DNA of 63,036 nt, counting the filler, from Phoronis australis (lineage: Eukaryota > Animalia > Phoronida), in NCBI GenBank assembly GCA_002633005.1. It is 6 parts of 6 records of this genome, joined end to end, with 100 filler letters (N's around TTAATTAATTAA, not from the genome) between each part and the next. Parts side by side here need not be neighbours in the genome. Positions count along the whole stretch, not along the records: positions 1 to 31,163 come from NMRA01000971.1; 5 more parts are not named here. One strand, 5' to 3'. Position numbers and translations under genes: made by a program. Positions within the stretch are counted from its first letter, which is position 1; each line of letters starts with the position of its first letter. This document shows, one piece after another, positions 1 to 62,895 of this stretch. Below the pieces are notes generated by a model. The model had not been told where the DNA came from. It made no database searches and saw nothing but the letters and a program-made list of their open reading frames with translations.

Positions 1-1338
1 AACTTGCGAATTTACGGCAGACGCACTGAACGACAATCTAAGAGACAGGTTCATTTGCAGAATACGATCTGACAACATCAAAAAGAGACTGCTTGCCAAA
101 GAATTTACATTTGACGAGGCGATCAAAGAAGCGGTTGCGCAGGAAACGGCGGCAAAGGACATGAAGAACATTCATCCGGGAGGTAATAGCGCGGAAAATG
201 CTGCAACGGGCGCAGTGAATCTAGTTCAAGGAAGGAAATCGTATAACGCAAACCCGAGAGCGAGAAGTACCCCGTGCACGCCGAGAAACGAAACACAGTC
301 ACACGGAACGCAGAGAAATGGTCAAGGAACTCAGCGGAAACAGTGTTGGCGCTGTGGGCTCAACAACCACACACCAGACAACTAGACATTTGAAATCGGA
401 ATGTCAGAAAGGGGCACATTTTGTTGAAGATGACGACATTACCCTTGATTTATTATTTGCCACTGATGAAACGTCCTCACCCGTACCACCAGCAATCAAG
501 GTTAATTCCTATTAAGATTGAGGGAATATTCTATTCAATATGGAATTTGACCTTGGCGCAGGGTCATCGGTCATAAGTTTCGCTGACTATGAGAAACATT
601 TCAAATATATTCCCTTGAAACCTAGACAACAGAATATGCACGCATATGCCGGAGCGCAATTAGATGTTGCGGGACAAATCACCGTAGACGTTGAATATGC
701 AGGCCAAAATGTGGCATTGCCACAAACGATTGTACGAGCGGATCGCCACGCCCCTCCTTTGTTGGGTCGAGTGTGGCTGAGTCAGTTAAAGTTGGATTGG
801 CACCTACTGGCTGACCAATTGAAAAGACCTACGGATGGTCAATACGTCATCACCGACTGGATCAATGAGTTCCAGACAAAATACCCAAACGTCTTCAAAC
901 GAGAATTGGGAACCATAAAAGGAATGGAAGCTAAGCTCCACGACGACGTAACACCCATTTTATTGAGGGCCCAACCGGTTCCGTTTCCACTACGTGCCGC
1001 GGTCGAGAAAGAATTGGTGCAAATGGAGAACGAGGGCATCATCAAACGTGTGGATTACAGTGAGTGGGCCACCCCACTTGTTTGTATTCCCAAACCGGAT
1101 GGCAGTGTGAGGCTATGTGGTGACTATAAGGTCACAGTAAATAAGTCAATTAAAACTGACCAATTTCCGATCCCTACACCGGACGAACAGTTTACTAAAC
1201 TGGCTGGAGGTGACAGCTACTCCAAGATTGATTTGCGGTGTGCCTATCAGCAAATGTTGTTAGACACTGACTCACAAAAACTGGTTACCATTAATACACA
1301 TAAAGGCACGATTACCATTTGGTATCAGTAGCTCACCA
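1..1338 (+). mobile_element. Decayed Ty3/Gypsy gag-pol fragment (gag, CCHC knuckle, protease, N-terminal RT), truncated
   Basis: Frame 2 from the window start reads TCEF..LNDNLRDRFICRIRSDNIKKRLL (gag). CWRCGLNNH knuckle ends in a stop. MEFDLGAGSSVIS resembles the protease DTG site. RT motifs SEWATPLVCIPKPDGSVRLCGDYK and SKIDLRCAYQQ, then RLPFGISSSP after a frameshift. No YxDD, RNase H or integrase. Confidence 0.9.
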
Positions 1339-5229: not shown

Positions 5230-5438
5230 GGCCATATAAGGTCATTTATTATGACTAATATAATTACAATATAATGAATGCAGATAAGTAACATAAACAT
5301 GGCCATATAAGGTCATTTATGACTAATACAATTACAATATAATGAATACAGATAAGTAACATAAACATGGCGATATCAGGTCATTTATGACTAATACAAT
5401 TACAATATAATGAATACAGATAAGTAACATAAAGATGG
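5230..5438. repeat. Tandem repeat, ~68-bp unit x3
   Basis: Units start at 5230, 5301 and 5369: ggccatataaggtcatttatgactaatacaattacaatataatgaatacagataagtaacataaacat. Confidence 0.95.
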
Positions 5439-6332
5439 TAATCATCTGGTAAGATGGGCCATAAAAAGTGGCACAAGAGATGTTGTAAGACAGCTCATGC
5501 CCATCTTTATACGTATGTACAAGTCAGTCTCAGTGGTCCCTTACCCAATTTTGTTTGGGCCACAGCAAATCTTCACTCTCTTAGCACACAATATGGTCAG
5601 CAATTGATATTCTATTGTGCTCAATTTCTCCACAAACGAAAATATTAATAAAATTTATGTTAATTACCAGCATGGTTTGTGGTGAGTGAATGTCGTAAAG
5701 GATTTGGTAAGGTTTGCACTATTTCCAACATGGTGATCAACTTTTGAAAGAGTGATAAAATGGCTATTTTGGCATTTTTTTTGTGAAATGTGTAGTATTG
5801 CCATAAGGTCCTAATGGCCTTACTGTATTCTTTATAATACACTGGTGCTTTGTTTGACTTAGAAATGAAATCCAATGTTGATGTAGCTCCCTGGATGTTA
5901 ATTTCATTGACCATTTGGGTAAACCCCTTCCCCCCCGGCTTTTAAAAATATGTTTGACTGGTTGAACGGCCACCACCTGATTTTTAGTCCCCCAATTTAA
6001 CCATAATAGTGGAAAAGTGATTATTAAAGCATCTACTGACCCAAGAAAGTATCAATGACTTGTTTCAAGAAACTTTGTGTGTCAAGATTCTATAACCACC
6101 ACTTGCTTTTAATTTAGTATCACAAATGGTGTTATATCTAACAAATCTCTCTTTATTCTTCTCATACTTGACAATTTTTTTTTCGATGCCATAAAAGCAT
6201 AATTGGAGTTTTTGGTGTTTTGAAAGTTTAGTCAGTGCGGTACTTACCATATTTCGTTGCTCACATTTTCAAAAAAGAAAATAATCCATGACGAACGAAG
6301 TTAAGCGGGATTTGTTTGTTCTTTTTTACTCA

Positions 6333-7057
6333 TCACTTAGTATTTTTTGGAATATTAAGTGTTAAAATAACACTTTTGTGATCTGAGAAATCTTTAGGCT
6401 GAATTTTTGTTCTTTGAACCCAATTCTTCATGCTTTTACTTATGAGAAAATAATCTATTCTACTCTTATTGTCTTTGTGTTCGCATGTGTAACATTCTTC
6501 AGTTTTGTCTGTTCTTTGCCATGGATCATACAATGAGTGCTTTCTTTTGAGTTCTTTAATTTGTGTTGTGATGTCTTGTTGATAATATAATGAACCCTCA
6601 GGGCGATCTGCCGGGTATTGGACTGCATTGAAGTCACCACAAAGAATCACAAATTCTGTATTAAATTCCTCAATAATGTGTTGTATTTTAGGAATGTATG
6701 TTTCCTTACTTTCGTGGGGCCTGTAAATATTGATAAGAGTAAATTCCCTTTCTCTTATAATCAGTTTCATTGCAACATAACTTCCGTTTAAATCCTGTTT
6801 TAACTCAACCATTCTATACAAATTCTTGTCAATATAGGTACAAACACCATGTGATTTTGATGACAGATTGCTGAAATAGTGATGAAAAGTGTCCCTTTGA
6901 AATTCTTCAATCTGCCCACACAGTGTAAAGTGGGTCTCTTGAAGACAAATGATTTGGCATTTCTTAGCTTCCAATATCTTAAAAGCTCTTCCTCTTTTGT
7001 TGCTTTTATTCAGTCCGTTGCAGTTCTGAGTCAAAATTCTAATCGTGGCGGCAGATT
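6333..7057 (-). CDS. L1/Tx1-type apurinic-like endonuclease (APE/EEP) domain, stand-alone, probably a terminal exon
   Basis: All EEP motifs present: TQNCNGL, CLQETH, NIY, CGDFN, SRIDY, FSDH. No ATG start; preceded by a pyrimidine tract plus CAG (tttttacattcctttttattgacag, ending at 7058). Ends TGA TGA; AATAAA at 6152-6157 (minus strand). Confidence 0.85.
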
Positions 7058-7607
7058 CTGTCAATAAAAAGGAATGTAAAAACCATTACTGAGTTGGTGT
7101 ATATGTGATGCATCACTGATAATTGTTGCAATGAGCCAACTGCCTTTTAGATATGTTAAATACATGTACTTTTGTGCAACATATCTTTGTTTCCTTTTAT
7201 TTCACACAACCACTAACTAATTACTACACATTTTGTGAACCCATATTATGTGCCCCCATCGGAAACCCCTTTTATCCTCTCGAAGAATCACTGTAGACTG
7301 GTCTATTGACATCATCATTGTGAGCAACACATTACCGTATTAAAGGCGAAAGCAACCTTTTTTCATGTCATTTTCAGCAAAAATAAGGTTTGTTGGTCAT
7401 CCTAGACATATTTTTCACTTAATTACAGCTTTTCGTAATTTAATTAATTGCCCATCCTCTACTCCGGAAATGACGTTTTGGGAGGCAAGAATTTCGCGCC
7501 AATTTCTTTTCATTTGGTCTGACTGCGAGAGATGAAGAGTCGGTCATTGGTCTACCTTAGTTGTGATAAGTTCGGTTGTTGTTTGTTTTGTTTACGAATC
7601 AGTCAAC

Positions 7608-8330
7608 ATGCCACACTGTTGCTGCGTACCGGGATTTACTCATTATCGTCTCACGCGCGCTTTGGGAATACCCGGCTTTGCATCGCTTTCCGAAGGATGA
7701 CACACTTCGCCGTCAGTACTTGGCCCGTTCGGGTAATGCACCGTTATAGCCGTCCACGCAACGTTCGAAGCAGTGGAGGGTTACCGAGTGTGTGGCAACC
7801 ATTTTCTGTCGTCAGATTACGAGAGAGATATGTACGCTGAATTGATGAAGATACCTGCGAAACAACGCCTGCAGAAGGGTGCCATACCGTCGCCGTTGAT
7901 TCCCGGAAGTGCCCGGCACCAACCCCGAGAAGTTCATTTTTGAAGCGAGAAGCCTTGCAAGCTGTGGCCACTACAGTGACTGGAGGCACTTCATCTACTG
8001 TCACCGTTGCCTCCGAACGTACCCCCAGAGCGTGCAATTCCGGGACTAGCAGTGATTCGCCCTGTGCTGTTGTCTCTAGCCCAGAGGCTTTAAGCAGCCC
8101 TGCAGTGATACTGAGTTGTGGGAGTGAATAGAGGCCCAGTTCGATACCCAGTAAAGAGGACAGTTGGTCGTCCAGTGAACAGATCGGTGAGCCAAACCTT
8201 GATAAGTTTATTGCGGACTTGTCTAAGGTATTGTAGCTATCTAGAAGGTGCCATGTGTGTGGCGAGAGAGTCACACGGCGGGATGTAAGCAGTTTGGGTG
8301 CTTAGTGGAAGTGTGTCGTAGGATACTTGG
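7608..8330 (+). pseudogene. Kolobok THAP-transposase N-terminal relic
   Basis: Across frameshifts: MPHCCCVPG, LHRFPKDDTLRRQY, YRVCGNHF (THAP C2CH). Later KFIADLSKVL*LSRRCHVCG resembles the KFIV..L..CxxC block of Kolobok transposases. Confidence 0.7.
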
Positions 8331-8437: not shown

Positions 8438-8639
8438 TGCTATGAATAAGGTCTGTGTTACTCACGCCACTACTGTCACTGCGGTGATATGGGTCACCGA
8501 CTCCAGCCCGTCAGATTAACACAAACTAAACAATCCCTAAATCCAATGTAATTGACTTCTCTAACAACCTAGATTGTGATATACTCGTCGATGGGAAGTG
8601 ATGACGACAATTTTAAAAAACAGCACGAAAACAAAGTAG

Positions 8640-9863
8640 TATAGTTTTCAGGCAAAAATAGCAGTTTTAATTGAACTTACAATACCAGCAGAAGACAATA
8701 TGGAATCAGCACACCTGAGAAAAAGAATGAAATATACAAATCTCGTCGAAGAATGTAAAAACGCAGGATGGCAAACAGTTCTGTTCCCTGTTGAAGTTGG
8801 CAGTAGAGGCTTCATCTACAAATCATTAAAGAAGCTAATGAATTTCCTCGAGGTCCCCAAAGAAATCAAAAAACAAGCATACCAAACGGCATCTCAGACA
8901 GCTCTTAGATGTAGCTATACAATATATTTATCAAGAAATAACAAGCAATTTACAGAATGGCAACTCTGCAACATTTCTAAGCCCAAGATTGAAACACAAT
9001 TAGCTACTTCGTCATCCCCGATATCAAGGAAGACAAACGAAAAATCAACAAAAGATAAAAGATTTGGTCTTTGCAATATTGGAAACACGTGTTTTGTGAA
9101 CTCTACACTTCAAGCTATCTTTTCATGCAACCTCAACTGGCACAAATACAATATCAACAAGAAAAACAATATGAAAACCATCCTTGTGAACACATATGAA
9201 GCAACTAAAAGGTATACATCAACTCCGTCTGAAATTTTGAATAAACTAAGATTACAGAACAACTCTCTTGGCAACGGAAGTCAACAGGATGCCCATGAAT
9301 TTTTACTATGGTTACTGAACCAATGGCACGTTGACACACTTGCTCACAACGCTGATAATGTAACGTCTGAGGTTACTAGTACCTTCCAACACGTGAAGAA
9401 GCAAACTAGGAGCTGTAATAACTGCACAACAACAAAGGAAAAAACACAGATAGACTGGGAGTTGACCGTCTACCTCCCAACGCTAAGGAAAGAAATAACT
9501 ATGCAGGAGTTGTGGCACAGCTTGTGGACGTCGTTGGACATCGAGGACTTTAGTTGCCCAAACTGTAATAGTCTCAGTGGCCAGCTCACATGGTCATTAG
9601 TAAAACCGCCAAAATACCTTTGTATTCATATCTTACGTACCGCGACTAATGGTGAAAAAATCAACACAAAGATTTCCTCGTATGACCTCTCCGGCTACAA
9701 AATAAAAGCAGTCATTGAACACCATGGAAGAAAGACGACGGGTGGTCATTATACATGCTGTGTTAAATCGTCAGCATGGGAATGGATAAATTTTGACGAC
9801 TCTACAGTCACAAGTACATCCAAGCCTCCCCAGGATGCCTACATTGCAATATATGAATTATAA
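8640..9863 (+). CDS. Fusion of a HERO-type restriction-like endonuclease C-terminal region with a ubiquitin-specific protease (peptidase C19)
   Basis: Open from 8640 (first ATG 8700). RLE: YS..AKIAVLIELTIPAEDNMESAHLRKRMKY..LVEEC..AGW....FPVEVGSRGF. USP: GLCNIGNTCF (Cys 9090), QQDAHEFL, CNNC/CPNC, HHG...GGHY (His 9747), WINFDDSTV (Asp 9795/9798), AYIAIY. Confidence 0.88.
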   Translation, partial: YSFQAKIAVLIELTIPAEDNMESAHLRKRMKYTNLVEECKNAGWQTVLFPVEVGSRGFIYKSLKKLMNFLEVPKEIKKQAYQTASQTALRCSYTIYLSRNNKQFTEWQLCNISKPKIETQLATSSSPISRKTNEKSTKDKRFGLCNIGNTCFVNSTLQAIFSCNLNWHKYNINKKNNMKTILVNTYEATKRYTSTPSEILNKLRLQNNSLGNGSQQDAHEFLLWLLNQWHVDTLAHNADNVTSEVTSTFQHVKKQTRSCNNCTTTKEKTQIDWELTVYLPTLRKEITMQELWHSLWTSLDIEDFSCPNCNSLSGQLTWSLVKPPKYLCIHILRTATNGEKINTKISSYDLSGYKIKAVIEHHGRKTTGGHYTCCVKSSAWEWINFDDSTVTSTSKPPQDAYIAIYEL

Positions 9864-12800
9864 ACCAACAAAGGAAATCAACATAAAAAATATGGCGCAA
9901 TTTCAACATCAATGTCGCATATCACATCTGACGCAGCCAAGTCAAGTTATTTTTTGAAATTCATCCTGGTACGGGAATTGGGGATAGTTAGGCCTATAAA
10001 AGATCTTTAACCCAGCCGCAGAGCGTCTAAAGCCGCGCACCGTACCAGTGACTGCGGGCAACTCATCGGGACTCAACTTTAACATCCTTCGCCACAGAGA
10101 TAACAACTCTTGGGCTGTCTCCGGTGAGTCCATTCTTTGTTGAATTATGTTTAGATAAATTCTCACAGTAAACTCAACGCAGAACCAAATTTGGGCGCGA
10201 AATTCTTGCCTTCCAAAACGTGACTTCCGGAGTAGAGGACGAGTAATTAATTAAACTACGAAAAGCTGTAATTTAGTGAAAAATGTGTCTGGGATTATCA
10301 ACGAAACTTGTTTTTGCTCAAAATGACATGAAAAAAGGTTGCGTTTGCCTTTAACCACAACTGGAGCAGCTGATTGGCTGCCGGGACAGTAAACAATTAA
10401 GTAGTTTTCTCAAAGAACGTCACCAATTAGAAACATCGCCGACGTTAGGCATCAATGTCGATTGATGATGCAATTACTAAGCAAAACGATCGTGTCAGGT
10501 AAAGCATCCTTCGAACTGAACAGCGGTGTAGATCTCGGATTGGGTGCTATCGATTCACTCACAACCCACGACGAACCAATTTTCGAAGTATTTGCACCCA
10601 TGCAAAATGCCATACAACAGCTACGCTTCGTACTAAATCTGACAACGGCAAACTTACCAAACTCTGTGGTGAGATGTCCCGATTATACACTAACAATATT
10701 CCGACAATAAGTCACCGCGACACTGGTCGGTACCATTTTATACGATCGTGACTCAGAAATGTCGTCAATTAATGGTGTGTGTGTGAATGTACGTCTCGTT
10801 TTTATCGCAAAAAATATACGTGAAGATGACAACCCTTGGCTGTTGCTTGTCAAACGACGGTCGCAACTTGTCTTGCATCAGAATAATTATAAGTCGGCAA
10901 GAAATTCTCAAGCCCTCGTTTCTGGGACAGCATGCGCGACAGTATGAGTCATCTGTCACTCACATGTTACGGTCAATGTATCGCATACTCCAGTGGTGGG
11001 AACTTAGAGACGCACACCTCTCATGTCGCACATCAAAAGAGAACGCCGGCAGTACTAAATAAAATATTGCACCGGCGTGACTCAATTAAGCGCCTGGGTG
11101 TTGCATATACTCGAATGCATGTGACTATTAGATACCGCTGATTCAACTTTAGCCTTGTGACACATTCTATGAAATCAACATCGCGAAAGGGTGTACTTAC
11201 AAACCCCGCATGTGAATGTCGGGCAGTACGGCTTTGGGTACACTTTGGAGGCACGCACTGAAAGCGTGCAGTCAGCATGTCGATGGGTTGTGCTATGACG
11301 GGGACGGCGTATTTCCCTAATTTCAAGGCATAAAATGCCTTGTGCAATTGGTCTTTCACATCGAACGATAGTTTAAATATGACAACCTATTCGTAGCGCT
11401 AACATTTTCTGTCCAGATGTAGAAGCCAGCCAATTCAAAATTTAATCTTGTGTCTCAGCAAGTTCCATTTATATAAGCAACGTCTCAAGGGTAAACCTCC
11501 AAATTTAATTGTATTAACAAAAGAAATTAACAGCTATTACTCCAGTGAAAAAATTTACAAATGGAAAAATTTACAAACAGATGGTCACAAATGCATAATT
11601 TGATAGCAATGTAAGGATATTTTATCATTCCAAAATACTCTCCCCTCCCTTTTTTCAGAGCCATATACTACCATACTGTCTTGTATGTTTTTGTTTTCTT
11701 TTGTTAAATGTATTTCAAAATCCGGTTCACGTATACTTTTAACTTAGTAAACTTTATTTTCATTGAATTGTAAAGTAAGGCACGGGAACCCCAGACCTTT
11801 GTCCTTACTTATGTTGAACTGGGAGAATAAAAAAAAAAAAAAAATTTTCTGTCCTTTTTATTCAATGATATTTAGTTCCCACCTCAATCGGTTAGACTTT
11901 CCCGCAGGTCTCAGAAATCTGCGTGCAGCTAGCTGCATCGGCTAGGACTAAGTTTCGTATGCCTTGTGTAAATTGCCTTTGCCCTCAAATGAAGAATATT
12001 AGAAATACAAATTACGAATTTTGTCGTGTCAAGGCGGCGTCATAATTGTTGTGTTTGTTTTGTCTGTCGTTTTTTTGTTTGCTATTTTGCCCGTACTTCA
12101 ATAGCTTAGACTTTCTCGACGGCCTGTTGTTTGTGTCGATCTCAGTCATTTAAAATGCAAATTGACAAGTTGACCTATACTGTCGTTTTAGAATCTAATC
12201 CAATGCATACTATTTGGGTGGCAAGTAAAACAGGGTGACTTCCGACACAATTTCAACTAAAATTTGAATGTGCTGATGTCGCAGCGTATGCTCATAAAAT
12301 TATATTTTTCTTCATAGAAATCATGGTGAAACCAAAAAAGAAACCTGGTGGAAATATCTAAAAATGTATTTGGAATTTCACGGGACATATTTTGCGACAT
12401 AATTTCCCCAATTTGACCGCAAGAACTAATGTCGGATTAATTTGAATTCAGCCGTATTAGCAAATTCGTTGACTAATTATACATATTACTCACCAACGAC
12501 AAACATCACCTCCGAGACGGTCAGTAGCATGTTCCGTGACAATTAGCCGGTTTCCCCCCTTATGTTTCAGTTTACTCGGATTCCGGCGCTAATCCATCCA
12601 AACGTTGTTTCTACATTTTCTTCATCTTCCATTTCGCCGTACATTTCATTGACCTCTTCCGCTGTAACGTCCATCCACGGCAAGGTCTTATGCTTTTCTG
12701 ACCCAAGTGCGAAAAGGCTCGGGTCATTCTTTTTTGTCATGCTGTGCATGAGCCTTTTGCTTCGTAAGATGTGTAACGCCGACGTACTCCCCGACATAAT

Positions 12801-49379: not shown

Positions 49380-50225
49380 TTGCCTTGGGAAATATATGAG
49401 GCCATTTAACAATTGCCTAATCTCAAGGCTGGTGTTGATGATGTCGTTATTTTTGAAATGCTGAAGTGCACTGAGGTAACGATAGTGCCAGTTTTGCATC
49501 AGTTATTTAATGCAATTTTTTATTCTGGGTATTATCCCCAGACATGGTGTGACGCAATGCTTACTCAAGTACATAAACAAGGTAATACCGATGGCCAAAA
49601 TAACTATAGAGGTGTTTTCCTGTTGTCTGCTTTGGGAAAAGCTTTTTTCCAAATTTTAATAATATCCTTTATTGCTAGGCTGAAAATAATGATAAATTTT
49701 TATGAGTGTCAAGATAGCTTTAGAAAGAGCTACTCTATGACCAAGTTTTTACATTTCAAACTATGTGTCATAAGGCAAGGTGGGATATTTTACTGTACCC
49801 TTGTAGATGTCTCGAAGGCATTCGATCGAATCCCTCATAATTTACTCTTCCATAGATTGAAAAATATTGATGTGCATGGTAAAATTTTCAACATCATCAG
49901 CTCTCTTTATGGCGAATTGGGCACTTGTTTGAAAACTCAAGATGGTCTTGCGGAGTTCTTTGATTGTATTGTTGGCACGCGCCAGGGTTGCATGATCACC
50001 CCAAAATTATTTGCGTTGTATCATGGTTTTATGTTCCTCTACCGCCGTCAACTTACAACGTATGCTAAATTGTTTGGCAGAATTTTGTGAATCATGGGGC
50101 AACCAAGGCAACTTGAAGAAAACCAAGGTGGTCGTTTTCAGAAATTTGGCTCCCTTGGACGATATGAGAAATGGTTTTACAATGGGACCCTGGTCGATGT
50201 GGTATCTCATTAAAAATACCTAAGA
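49380..50225 (+). mobile_element. Decayed LINE reverse transcriptase (RTE-X/CR1-group-like)
   Basis: LFNAIF.SG.YP.TW, HKQG...NNYRGV.LLS, VDVSKAFDRI, GTRQGCMITP.LF. The YADD region is missing. LQRMLNCLAEFC..W..NLKKTKVVVF follows in the next frame. Confidence 0.88.
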
Positions 50226-52630: not shown

Positions 52631-53004
52631 ACAATGTATGGCGAACGAGCTCTGCAAGTTATTTTAGAGTCCGACTGATCCACAAAATCAGTACACCCCT
52701 TTCTTAAAAAATGGGTTAAAAGTTAGAAACAAAGGACACAAGTTTCCATCAGTTGTAACGTCGATTTTCGACATTGATGTTGGGGAGGAACAACAGTCTG
52801 GCGACAGCAACACGTAATCACCCCGCGAAGGCGATGATTTTCGGCAAAATTTATTCGTTTTCGTTTTCGTAGTATGTCTTTTTCCCTATGGTTCAGGACT
52901 ACTTCTGAATCCAGGAACAAAAACTGAAAAAGGCAGGGATCGTGATAACGTTGGAGAACGATAACATTTATATATAATAAGGTGTTACAACTGTCATCGA
53001 TATT

Positions 53005-53049
53005 ATTTTTGCTAAAAATTACATCAGTGAAAAAAGGTTGCTTTCGCCT
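53005..53049 (+). mobile_element. Solo right TIR related to the Kolobok element at 7344-10350
   Basis: tgaaaaaaggttgctttcgcct is the exact reverse complement of 7344-7365. Confidence 0.7.
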
Positions 53050-61860: not shown

Positions 61861-62275
61861 TTTCTCTTACCTTGTAGTCATTAAATCATCACCTTTTCTT
61901 GCTCGCACCATGTCACTAAGCGGGCTAGTGCAAAGCTGCCTAGAGAAACTGTTCTCGAAAAAGCACATTCGTCAAACGTGATATATAAGCCGTTGGTCTT
62001 ATGCAGAGAGGAGACTATATTAACAGCGAAGGATCTCACACTGATGAATACGAGTGAAGTTTGAATAGAGACAACTTTTCTAAAATGTGGCGACATGTTT
62101 TTGCAGTAAAACATCTACCTTTTTCAAGATTTATTCAGAGAATGGATGCAAGAATACCTACAGGTACAATACACATGTCGCTACAATTTAGAAAAGTCGT
62201 CTTTATTCAAACTTTACATAATAAATAGCTATGCCAGGCCGTTGTCACTTTTTAACCTACCTGTATTCGCCACAG

Positions 62276-62403
62276 GCATAATCTGTGTTGAGAACATGTG
62301 CGGTGGAGCCGGTCACTTGGACTACAACTGCGTCCCGTCTGTGATCTACACGCACCCCGAGGTCGCCTGGGTCGGCAAGAGCGAGGAAGACTTAAAGAAC
62401 GAG
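62276..62403 (+). CDS. DLD: Dihydrolipoamide dehydrogenase, internal exon
   Basis: cacag|(G)[42 protein letters not shown]|gtaaag, phase 1-0. Confidence 0.96.
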
Positions 62404-62895
62404 GTAAAGCATGGCAATGCAGTAAATCGCAGGGTGGGTGATCACGGAAGTGTTCTTAGAGACATGATTGGTACCCACTTATGGAAAATGAAACAATACT
62501 GTCCAAACGGCATGGAATATTCATGGAAAATGAGAAAATACCATCTGAAGCTCATGTAGTAATTGTGAAAAATGTAAAACACAACATTGATTTTCTCAAT
62601 TTGACATCATTCTGGGAAACTAATAATCACGCTTTATAAGTCTCTGGCTAATTAGCATTTTGAAAGCTGGTTTGGGTCAGAGTTATCAAGTAGGGCAGAT
62701 TTGTTATTTTCAATTACGGCAAATCAACGGTATTTTATTTGGTCTTCAAAGCTTCGTAGGACTAGATTAACAACAGTTACTGTTTTATTTTGGCTATATG
62801 AGCAGAAAGAAGTTGAAGTCACACTGACAGATCTAGGGTGTTGTAAAGTGGAGTGGGCAACCACATCACAGAAGCCCTGCAAACTGGTAGCGGCA

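Follow-up and report, generated by a model that had tools for sequence, protein, structure and literature searches.

The window analysed here is a 63,036-nucleotide stretch made of six joined parts of the genome of Phoronis australis (Phoronida; GCA_002633005.1), and all positions below refer to it. It contains a 5'-truncated copy of a non-LTR (lacking long terminal repeats, LTRs) retrotransposon, or long interspersed nuclear element (LINE), of the type that carries a restriction-like endonuclease (RLE). We regard it as practically certain that the single protein of this element ends in a ubiquitin-specific protease (USP; peptidase C19). The RLE-USP layout is a real and widespread variant of RLE-bearing LINEs, found in dozens of divergent lineages. 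The parts of the P. australis copy are as follows:

8647..10158, plus strand: 5'-truncated non-LTR copy, with its 5' edge at 8645-8647 and its 3' edge at about 10158, set by empty-site joints
8647..8969, plus strand: C-terminal half of the RLE; E12, K28 and Y32 kept, PD aspartate cut off; fold matches
8970..9065, plus strand: linker rich in S, K and T, predicted to be disordered (pLDDT below 50 for residues 102-137)
9066..9863, plus strand: USP (peptidase C19) domain and stop codon; Cys151 at 9090, His370 at 9747, Asp386 at 9795
9414 and 9555, plus strand: CxxC pairs of the USP
9864..10158, plus strand: 3' untranslated region with a splice donor (exon end at 10123, intron start GTGAGT)

The RLE part and the USP lie in one frame of 407 codons without a stop (8640-9863, plus strand), as an earlier note made from the sequence alone had stated; the longest open frame in 1000 base shuffles was 168 codons (median 80). 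The Pfam UCH profile covers residues 143-405 (E 2.3e-34, 119.6 bits against a curated cut-off of 23.9). The compact USP described in that note is in place, from its Cys box (codon 9090) to its His box: N146 (the oxyanion Asn), C151, H370, D386/D387, QQDAHEF and both CxxC pairs are kept. Judged by its residues, the USP is an intact domain with all catalytic and zinc-binding positions retained, and such a domain is predicted, with good confidence, to be active on ubiquitin. An AlphaFold model of the 407-codon protein has a mean pLDDT of 77.5, falling below 50 in the linker, and aligns with USP12 over 266 residues (Z 26.3, root-mean-square deviation (rmsd) 2.8; Foldseek match to the USP fold, E 1e-19). 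The fold matches to USP12, USP46, USP1, USP35 and USP30 are nearly tied.

A Pfam scan of the N-terminal part (the first 115 residues) gave no match. Modelled alone, this part reaches a pLDDT of 89.8 and its top seven Foldseek matches are all R2 proteins (best E 8.8e-4). VIA-align ranks residues 1279-1390 of R2Tg first, with a Z of 8.3 that is middling taken alone (rmsd 4.9, 107 residues aligned; next match 5.8). These R2 matches and the retained E, K and Y bear out the assignment of the start of the frame to the C-terminal part of an RLE, and the S/T/K-rich linker was likewise recognized correctly.

The extent of the element differs from the span of 8520-9890 first given to it. Five runs have contigs or reads that connect about 8635-8644 directly with about 10159-10162 (8635 to 10161 in X1, 8635 to 10159 in X5, 8644 to 10159 in X4, and 8635 to 10162 in X8 and X9), which indicates copies of the surrounding DNA element without the insert and places the insertion at about 8647-10158. 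In assembled contigs and reads, depth is about 25-350 inside the insert vs. thousands in the flanks, depth here not being a copy number. DCDILVD near 8572, proposed as a pre-RLE motif, is in another frame and falls in the flanking DNA element, other copies of which have different letters at that place. The RPD motif, thought to be disrupted, is missing because the 5' truncation at about 8645-8647 removed it: a sister contig of X1 reaches 255 bases further upstream than 8647 and closes with letters that read LRPDIVLWS in frame. Having neither a reverse transcriptase (RT) nor the PD aspartate, the studied copy is itself dead. Its junctions show neither a poly(A) tail nor a clear target-site duplication, and the letters of the empty site differ among copies. 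The window contains the insert only once and shows no remnant of an RT upstream of it.

The RLE-USP junction is not single-copy in this species. Several copies share a 3' end and have differing 5' junctions: one at 8647, a second at 8781 (30 reads in X8; one X1 contig begins there) and one reaching RPD. Contigs with different flanks all end near 10161-10167. The RLE-USP junction is crossed by contigs of two studies (X1 and X4, which may be the source of the assembly, and X5) and by RNA reads of a third, and many RNA reads share a set of differences spanning RLE and USP.

Two word-index searches with the single protein yielded nothing fused, their 4 and 5 matches being generic USPs at 22-43% identity, as would be expected if a host USP retrocopy had been joined by chance to an endonuclease fragment at one locus. 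This apparent absence of fused relatives was overturned by a full HMMER scan and a profile search. Among the best 150 HMMER matches in a set of 50%-identity representatives, 40 carry both RLE and USP, 70 RLE only and 40 USP only. Given these 40 fused representatives, the several copies in P. australis and the lack of a close host USP among the matches, the chance joining is largely refuted and we give it almost no weight.

In the redundant set, the USP stands after the RLE in 81 of the 81 sequences that have both, mostly at the protein's end. Sixteen long proteins (1231-1861 residues, 24-76% mutual identity) have the order RT-CCHC-RLE-USP and keep the (F/Y)(M/A)DD motif of the RT and RPD..ELTCP. 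Of 80 metagenome loci, 78 have an RLE frame and 19 have the USP in the same frame; their 3' ends show no common tail or target. The full PD..E..K..Y pattern is present in 43 of 48 fused relatives. After dereplication, the catalytic Cys is found in 48 of 48 fused USPs and the four zinc cysteines in 47-48 of 48, while the full triad is present in 42 of the 43 complete domains, the exception being truncated. The fused USP domains measure 221-315 residues, and the linker between RLE and USP 23-263. RLE and USP identities co-vary (rho 0.60, a value reached by 0 of 2000 permutations), and intact open reading frames (ORFs) occur naturally, e.g. P0192 and L075. In the Atlas, the nearest cluster is eukaryotic, with Cnidaria the commonest among six members with a record. 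Also among the top matches are P0011, P0012, P0021, P0039 and P0102, which have 3-10 tandem USP domains.

The existence of long RT-CCHC-RLE-USP proteins and the conservation of the USP in relatives uphold the proposal that the studied copy is what a 5' truncation left of an element from a non-LTR lineage that encodes a USP of its own. The RT and CCHC that are absent from the truncated copy are present in relatives and were not seen for the species' own family.

In order to follow the history of the fusion, we used a quick RT tree and a backbone placement test with 35 chosen rows, in which the studied copy fills 23% of the columns. The backbone trees place most fused elements in one large group with few USP-less members, and P0138, a herring/pipefish RLE element that has no USP, is sister to this main USP group (support 100). 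The studied copy is not in this group; it belongs to a clade of six rows (support 99) together with P0015, which has a USP, P0198, which has a JAMM domain, and three USP-less fragments. One clade for all USP-bearing elements is rejected on the 35 rows (p-AU 2e-69). For the USP tree (29 of 91 rows), a single origin is neither shown nor rejected (p-AU 0.21). The history is one either of repeated gains or swaps, or of an early gain with many losses; many rows scored as lacking a USP are fragments, and losses are possibly overcounted.

The position behind the endonuclease is not always occupied by a USP alone. P0198 (1443 residues; one contig) reads RT-CCHC-RLE-repetitive linker-JAB/JAMM, with JAB/JAMM (E 1e-16) in the USP's place; its RLE is about 49% identical to that of the studied copy, and searching the Atlas with its JAMM-bearing part yielded no usable match. 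Its order of RT, endonuclease and JAB recalls Prp8. P0178/P0075 (1738 residues; a cluster of four) reads RT-CCHC-RLE-DarT-USP, and the DarT match between RLE and USP (E 6e-20, HFT and QAE motifs) points to a DNA ADP-ribosyltransferase domain of bacterial type within a retrotransposon protein. Finally, the USP of the RLE element P0017 groups with those of P0081 and P0206 (support 95), which are Helitron-like proteins with a PIF1 helicase, an AP endonuclease and a USP at the end, hinting at exchange between transposon classes. We tentatively suggest, with rather less than even confidence, that these LINEs have, C-terminal to the endonuclease, an exchangeable slot for counter-defence, filled repeatedly and independently with enzymes that act on the ubiquitin or the DNA-damage signalling of the host: with a USP several times, with JAMM once and with DarT plus USP once. 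If this is true, these would be the first retrotransposons shown to carry active deubiquitinases of their own against ubiquitin-based restriction.

Selection on the USP was assessed from the proportions of non-synonymous (pN) and synonymous (pS) differences in 24 of 171 locus pairs, namely those with a USP identity of at least 50%, close enough to align. In 23 of the 24, USP pN is 0.18-0.37 and pS 0.69-0.87, with synonymous sites saturated. In the same pairs pN is 0.16-0.28 for the RLE and 0.41-0.67 for the linker, which puts the USP near the RLE and below the linker. By this comparison the USPs of relatives are evidently under purifying selection.

As to function, the earlier note had suggested that the USP may shield the ribonucleoprotein from degradation or take off repressive ubiquitin marks. 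We favour self-protection, if only by a little over an even judgement: the USP probably removes ubiquitin from the protein of which it is part, such that the ribonucleoprotein would survive host clearance long enough to integrate. Intact elements would make one RT-CCHC-RLE-linker-USP protein, which, if it behaves as R2 does, would bind its own RNA, nick DNA and reverse transcribe at the nick (target-primed reverse transcription). The fused USP would then act in cis on its own protein and on whatever is bound beside it, and would counter E3-driven degradation like that documented for LINE-1 proteins; we hold this part of the mechanism to be evenly balanced. Self-protection is favoured because the LINE-1 proteins ORF1p and ORF2p are removed by ubiquitin ligases, with TEX19.1/UBR2 attacking ORF1p (PMC5570191) and TRIM41 acting on ORF2p via ubiquitin (PMC11868049), and because the OTU or VTD deubiquitinases in Helitrons have been proposed to prevent degradation (PMC9741609).

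Several observations weigh against self-protection, and a number of them speak for a different explanation that we consider distinctly improbable, namely that the USP is an optional cargo, useful in some lineages and decaying here, the fusion being a relic with no current function. Low-depth contigs join 9024 to 9951 and 9027 to 9901 and skip the USP (sides of 27-32 bases), and sister copies have frameshifting indels. Across the frame, first-mate plus reads predominate (about 20-80 vs. 0-15); as the donor at 10123 points to a library of reverse strandedness, this mostly one-stranded RNA is probably antisense. USP-less forms appear, nested among the USP-bearing elements. Among 40 of the 322 differences from sister copies or alleles, 34 fall in the frame; for these, the RLE shows 11 synonymous to 5 non-synonymous changes (p 2e-4) and the USP 6 to 11 (p 0.20), so that constraint on the USP is not demonstrated in this species' own family and the check on selection holds for the relatives only. 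The relatives themselves are distant, since the USP of the studied copy is at most 27% identical to other fused USPs; a single clade of seven members supplies 21 of the 23 supporting pairs, which are not independent of one another; and the sole near-identical locus pair, with USP pN 0.057 vs. pS 0.068, is uninformative or contrary. It should be noted, however, that the studied copy retains an open frame and every catalytic and zinc residue, that constraint in relatives is strong, and that changes arising in dead copies after insertion are expected to be neutral.

The JAMM substitute bears on where a USP would act. AMSH-type enzymes are K63-specific, and the JAMM domain of P0198 looks AMSH-like, which fits signalling better than proteasomal protection and so also counts against self-protection. 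It agrees with another reading, unlikely in our estimate yet the chief rival, in which the USP is active at the insertion site: tethered behind the endonuclease, it would deubiquitinate histones or repair factors (H2A, PCNA, FANCD2, K63 chains), delaying or steering repair until reverse transcription ends. The USP does sit directly behind the DNA-cutting domain on its linker of 23-263 residues, one relative has DarT between the two, and a repair-related role has been proposed for transposon Ulp1/OTU domains (PMC2836005). On the other side, the near-tied fold matches are silent on the substrate, the JAMM case is one contig and the DarT case one cluster of four.

The enzyme could also serve another target, such as SUMO, NEDD8 or another ubiquitin-like modifier, or the polyprotein of the element itself, although we judge this very improbable. 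Ulp1/C48 proteases occur on NeSL, Utopia and a Dualen, and ISG15 and SUMO enzymes of the USP fold are among the fold matches. In addition, the L-x-R-F motif is often missing: its pattern is absent in 25 of 48 fused USPs and LRT stands at its position in the studied copy, a further point against self-protection. The best solved matches of the profile are nevertheless ubiquitin enzymes, USP2, USP21 and USP8 (E about 1e-49 to 1e-52), and USPL1 is far lower by fold (Z 17 vs. 26). Self-protection by removal of ubiquitin remains the explanation that we favour.

The one insertion site mapped for the retroelement is inside a DNA transposon. This enclosing element had been overlooked in the earlier note; the frame lies between terminal inverted repeats (TIRs) of 161 bases whose arms are 89% complementary. 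Its features are:

7340..7500, plus strand: TTAA and left TIR, starting AGG, of a Kolobok-like element
7608..7937, plus strand: degenerate THAP-like coding sequence belonging to the DNA element, interrupted by stops and frameshifts (Pfam THAP, E 0.0053, short of the curated threshold)
10194..10354, minus strand: right TIR and TTAA of the Kolobok-like element (TTAA then AGG)

Kolobok elements have a TTAA target, RR (AG) termini with inverted repeats, and a THAP/H2CH/DDE transposase (PMC6004289). The enclosing element has TTAA, the RR terminus and the TIR at both ends; its THAP remnant is sub-threshold, and no DDE is visible in its translations. It is a high-copy, non-autonomous, Kolobok-like element. 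A short second TIR fragment of the same family lies at about 52994-53049.

The 3' end of the retroelement has an RNA pattern of its own. None of the indexed runs that hold the stretch is recorded as RNA. One-strand RNA depth peaks at about 375 at 10065-10119 (region 10010-10125), and most RNA reads depart at 10123-10125 into many sequences (agreement 0.37-0.52; loose ends in X8 and X9), whereas DNA contigs run on to about 10161-10167. The 3' end of the element may serve as a promoter and first exon that is spliced to several host exons. A spliced leader is not favoured, since the exon exceeds 100 bases and no pile-up of starts is listed. An Rfam scan of 9800-10400 gave one chance-level match only, and no RNA family accounts for the 3' end. 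Runs X6 and X7, labelled as two other organisms, carry near-identical pieces of insert and flank (X6: 8673-8861, one difference), which may reflect a close relative, a mislabel or contamination.

Other elements in the window are:

522..1331, plus strand: RT fragment, LTR-type in appearance
5230..5452: 68-base tandem repeat, three copies
6333..7085, minus strand: AP-endonuclease frame of another LINE (E 3e-11)
49410..50090, plus strand: LINE RT fragment
62110..62559, plus strand: exon resembling a pyridine nucleotide-disulphide oxidoreductase dimerisation domain

In a search confined to published papers, no RLE-USP, RLE-JAMM or RLE-DarT element was found described, and the available text of PMC9004415, PMC5718144, PMC5678591 and PMC13580325 has no USP on an RLE element. 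The RLE-USP layout is apparently undescribed. Hosts restrict LINE proteins by ubiquitin-driven degradation, and the deubiquitinases of DNA transposons are a proposed counter-move, their role in transposition being only proposed in the text available. In the studied family the deubiquitinase is in the same polypeptide as the RT and endonuclease, USP-less and JAMM relatives provide natural comparisons, and the intact ORFs open a direct test of whether deubiquitination helps LINE insertion. Furthermore, the fusions show that an RLE protein can accommodate a large added domain at its C-terminus, a point of relevance to insertion tools of the R2 type, and the family is a source of compact USP domains.

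Among known systems, HERO is the probable clade of the element, a placement for which the fish RLE element P0138, sister to the main USP group, served as the landmark. HERO elements, reported in fish, lancelet and sea urchin (PMC9004415), likewise have one ORF with RT, CCHC and RLE. Their insertion is mostly non-specific (PMC4640811); the single mapped site of the studied family is in a DNA transposon. They differ in that the studied family has a USP behind the RLE, no protease being mentioned for HERO in the available text. Among solved structures, R2 is the best match both for the P0187 RT (E 4e-24) and for the studied RLE; unlike the studied family, R2Tg ends with the matched region (1279-1390 of 1390), and the studied copy has no ribosomal DNA target. 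NeSL, Utopia and Dualen are also RLE-bearing LINEs with a cysteine protease for a ubiquitin-like modifier, but theirs is of the SUMO type and N-terminal to the RT (Ulp1 in NeSL and Utopia, PMC4640811; C48 in a Dualen, PMC5029228), whereas the studied family has a C-terminal C19 USP. Ginger1, with OTU/Ulp1, a Trichomonas transposase with C19 (both PMC2836005) and the Helitrons also join a transposon protein to a deubiquitinase proposed to act against degradation or for repair; these, however, are DNA transposons and mostly use other enzyme families, with C19 in the Trichomonas case only.

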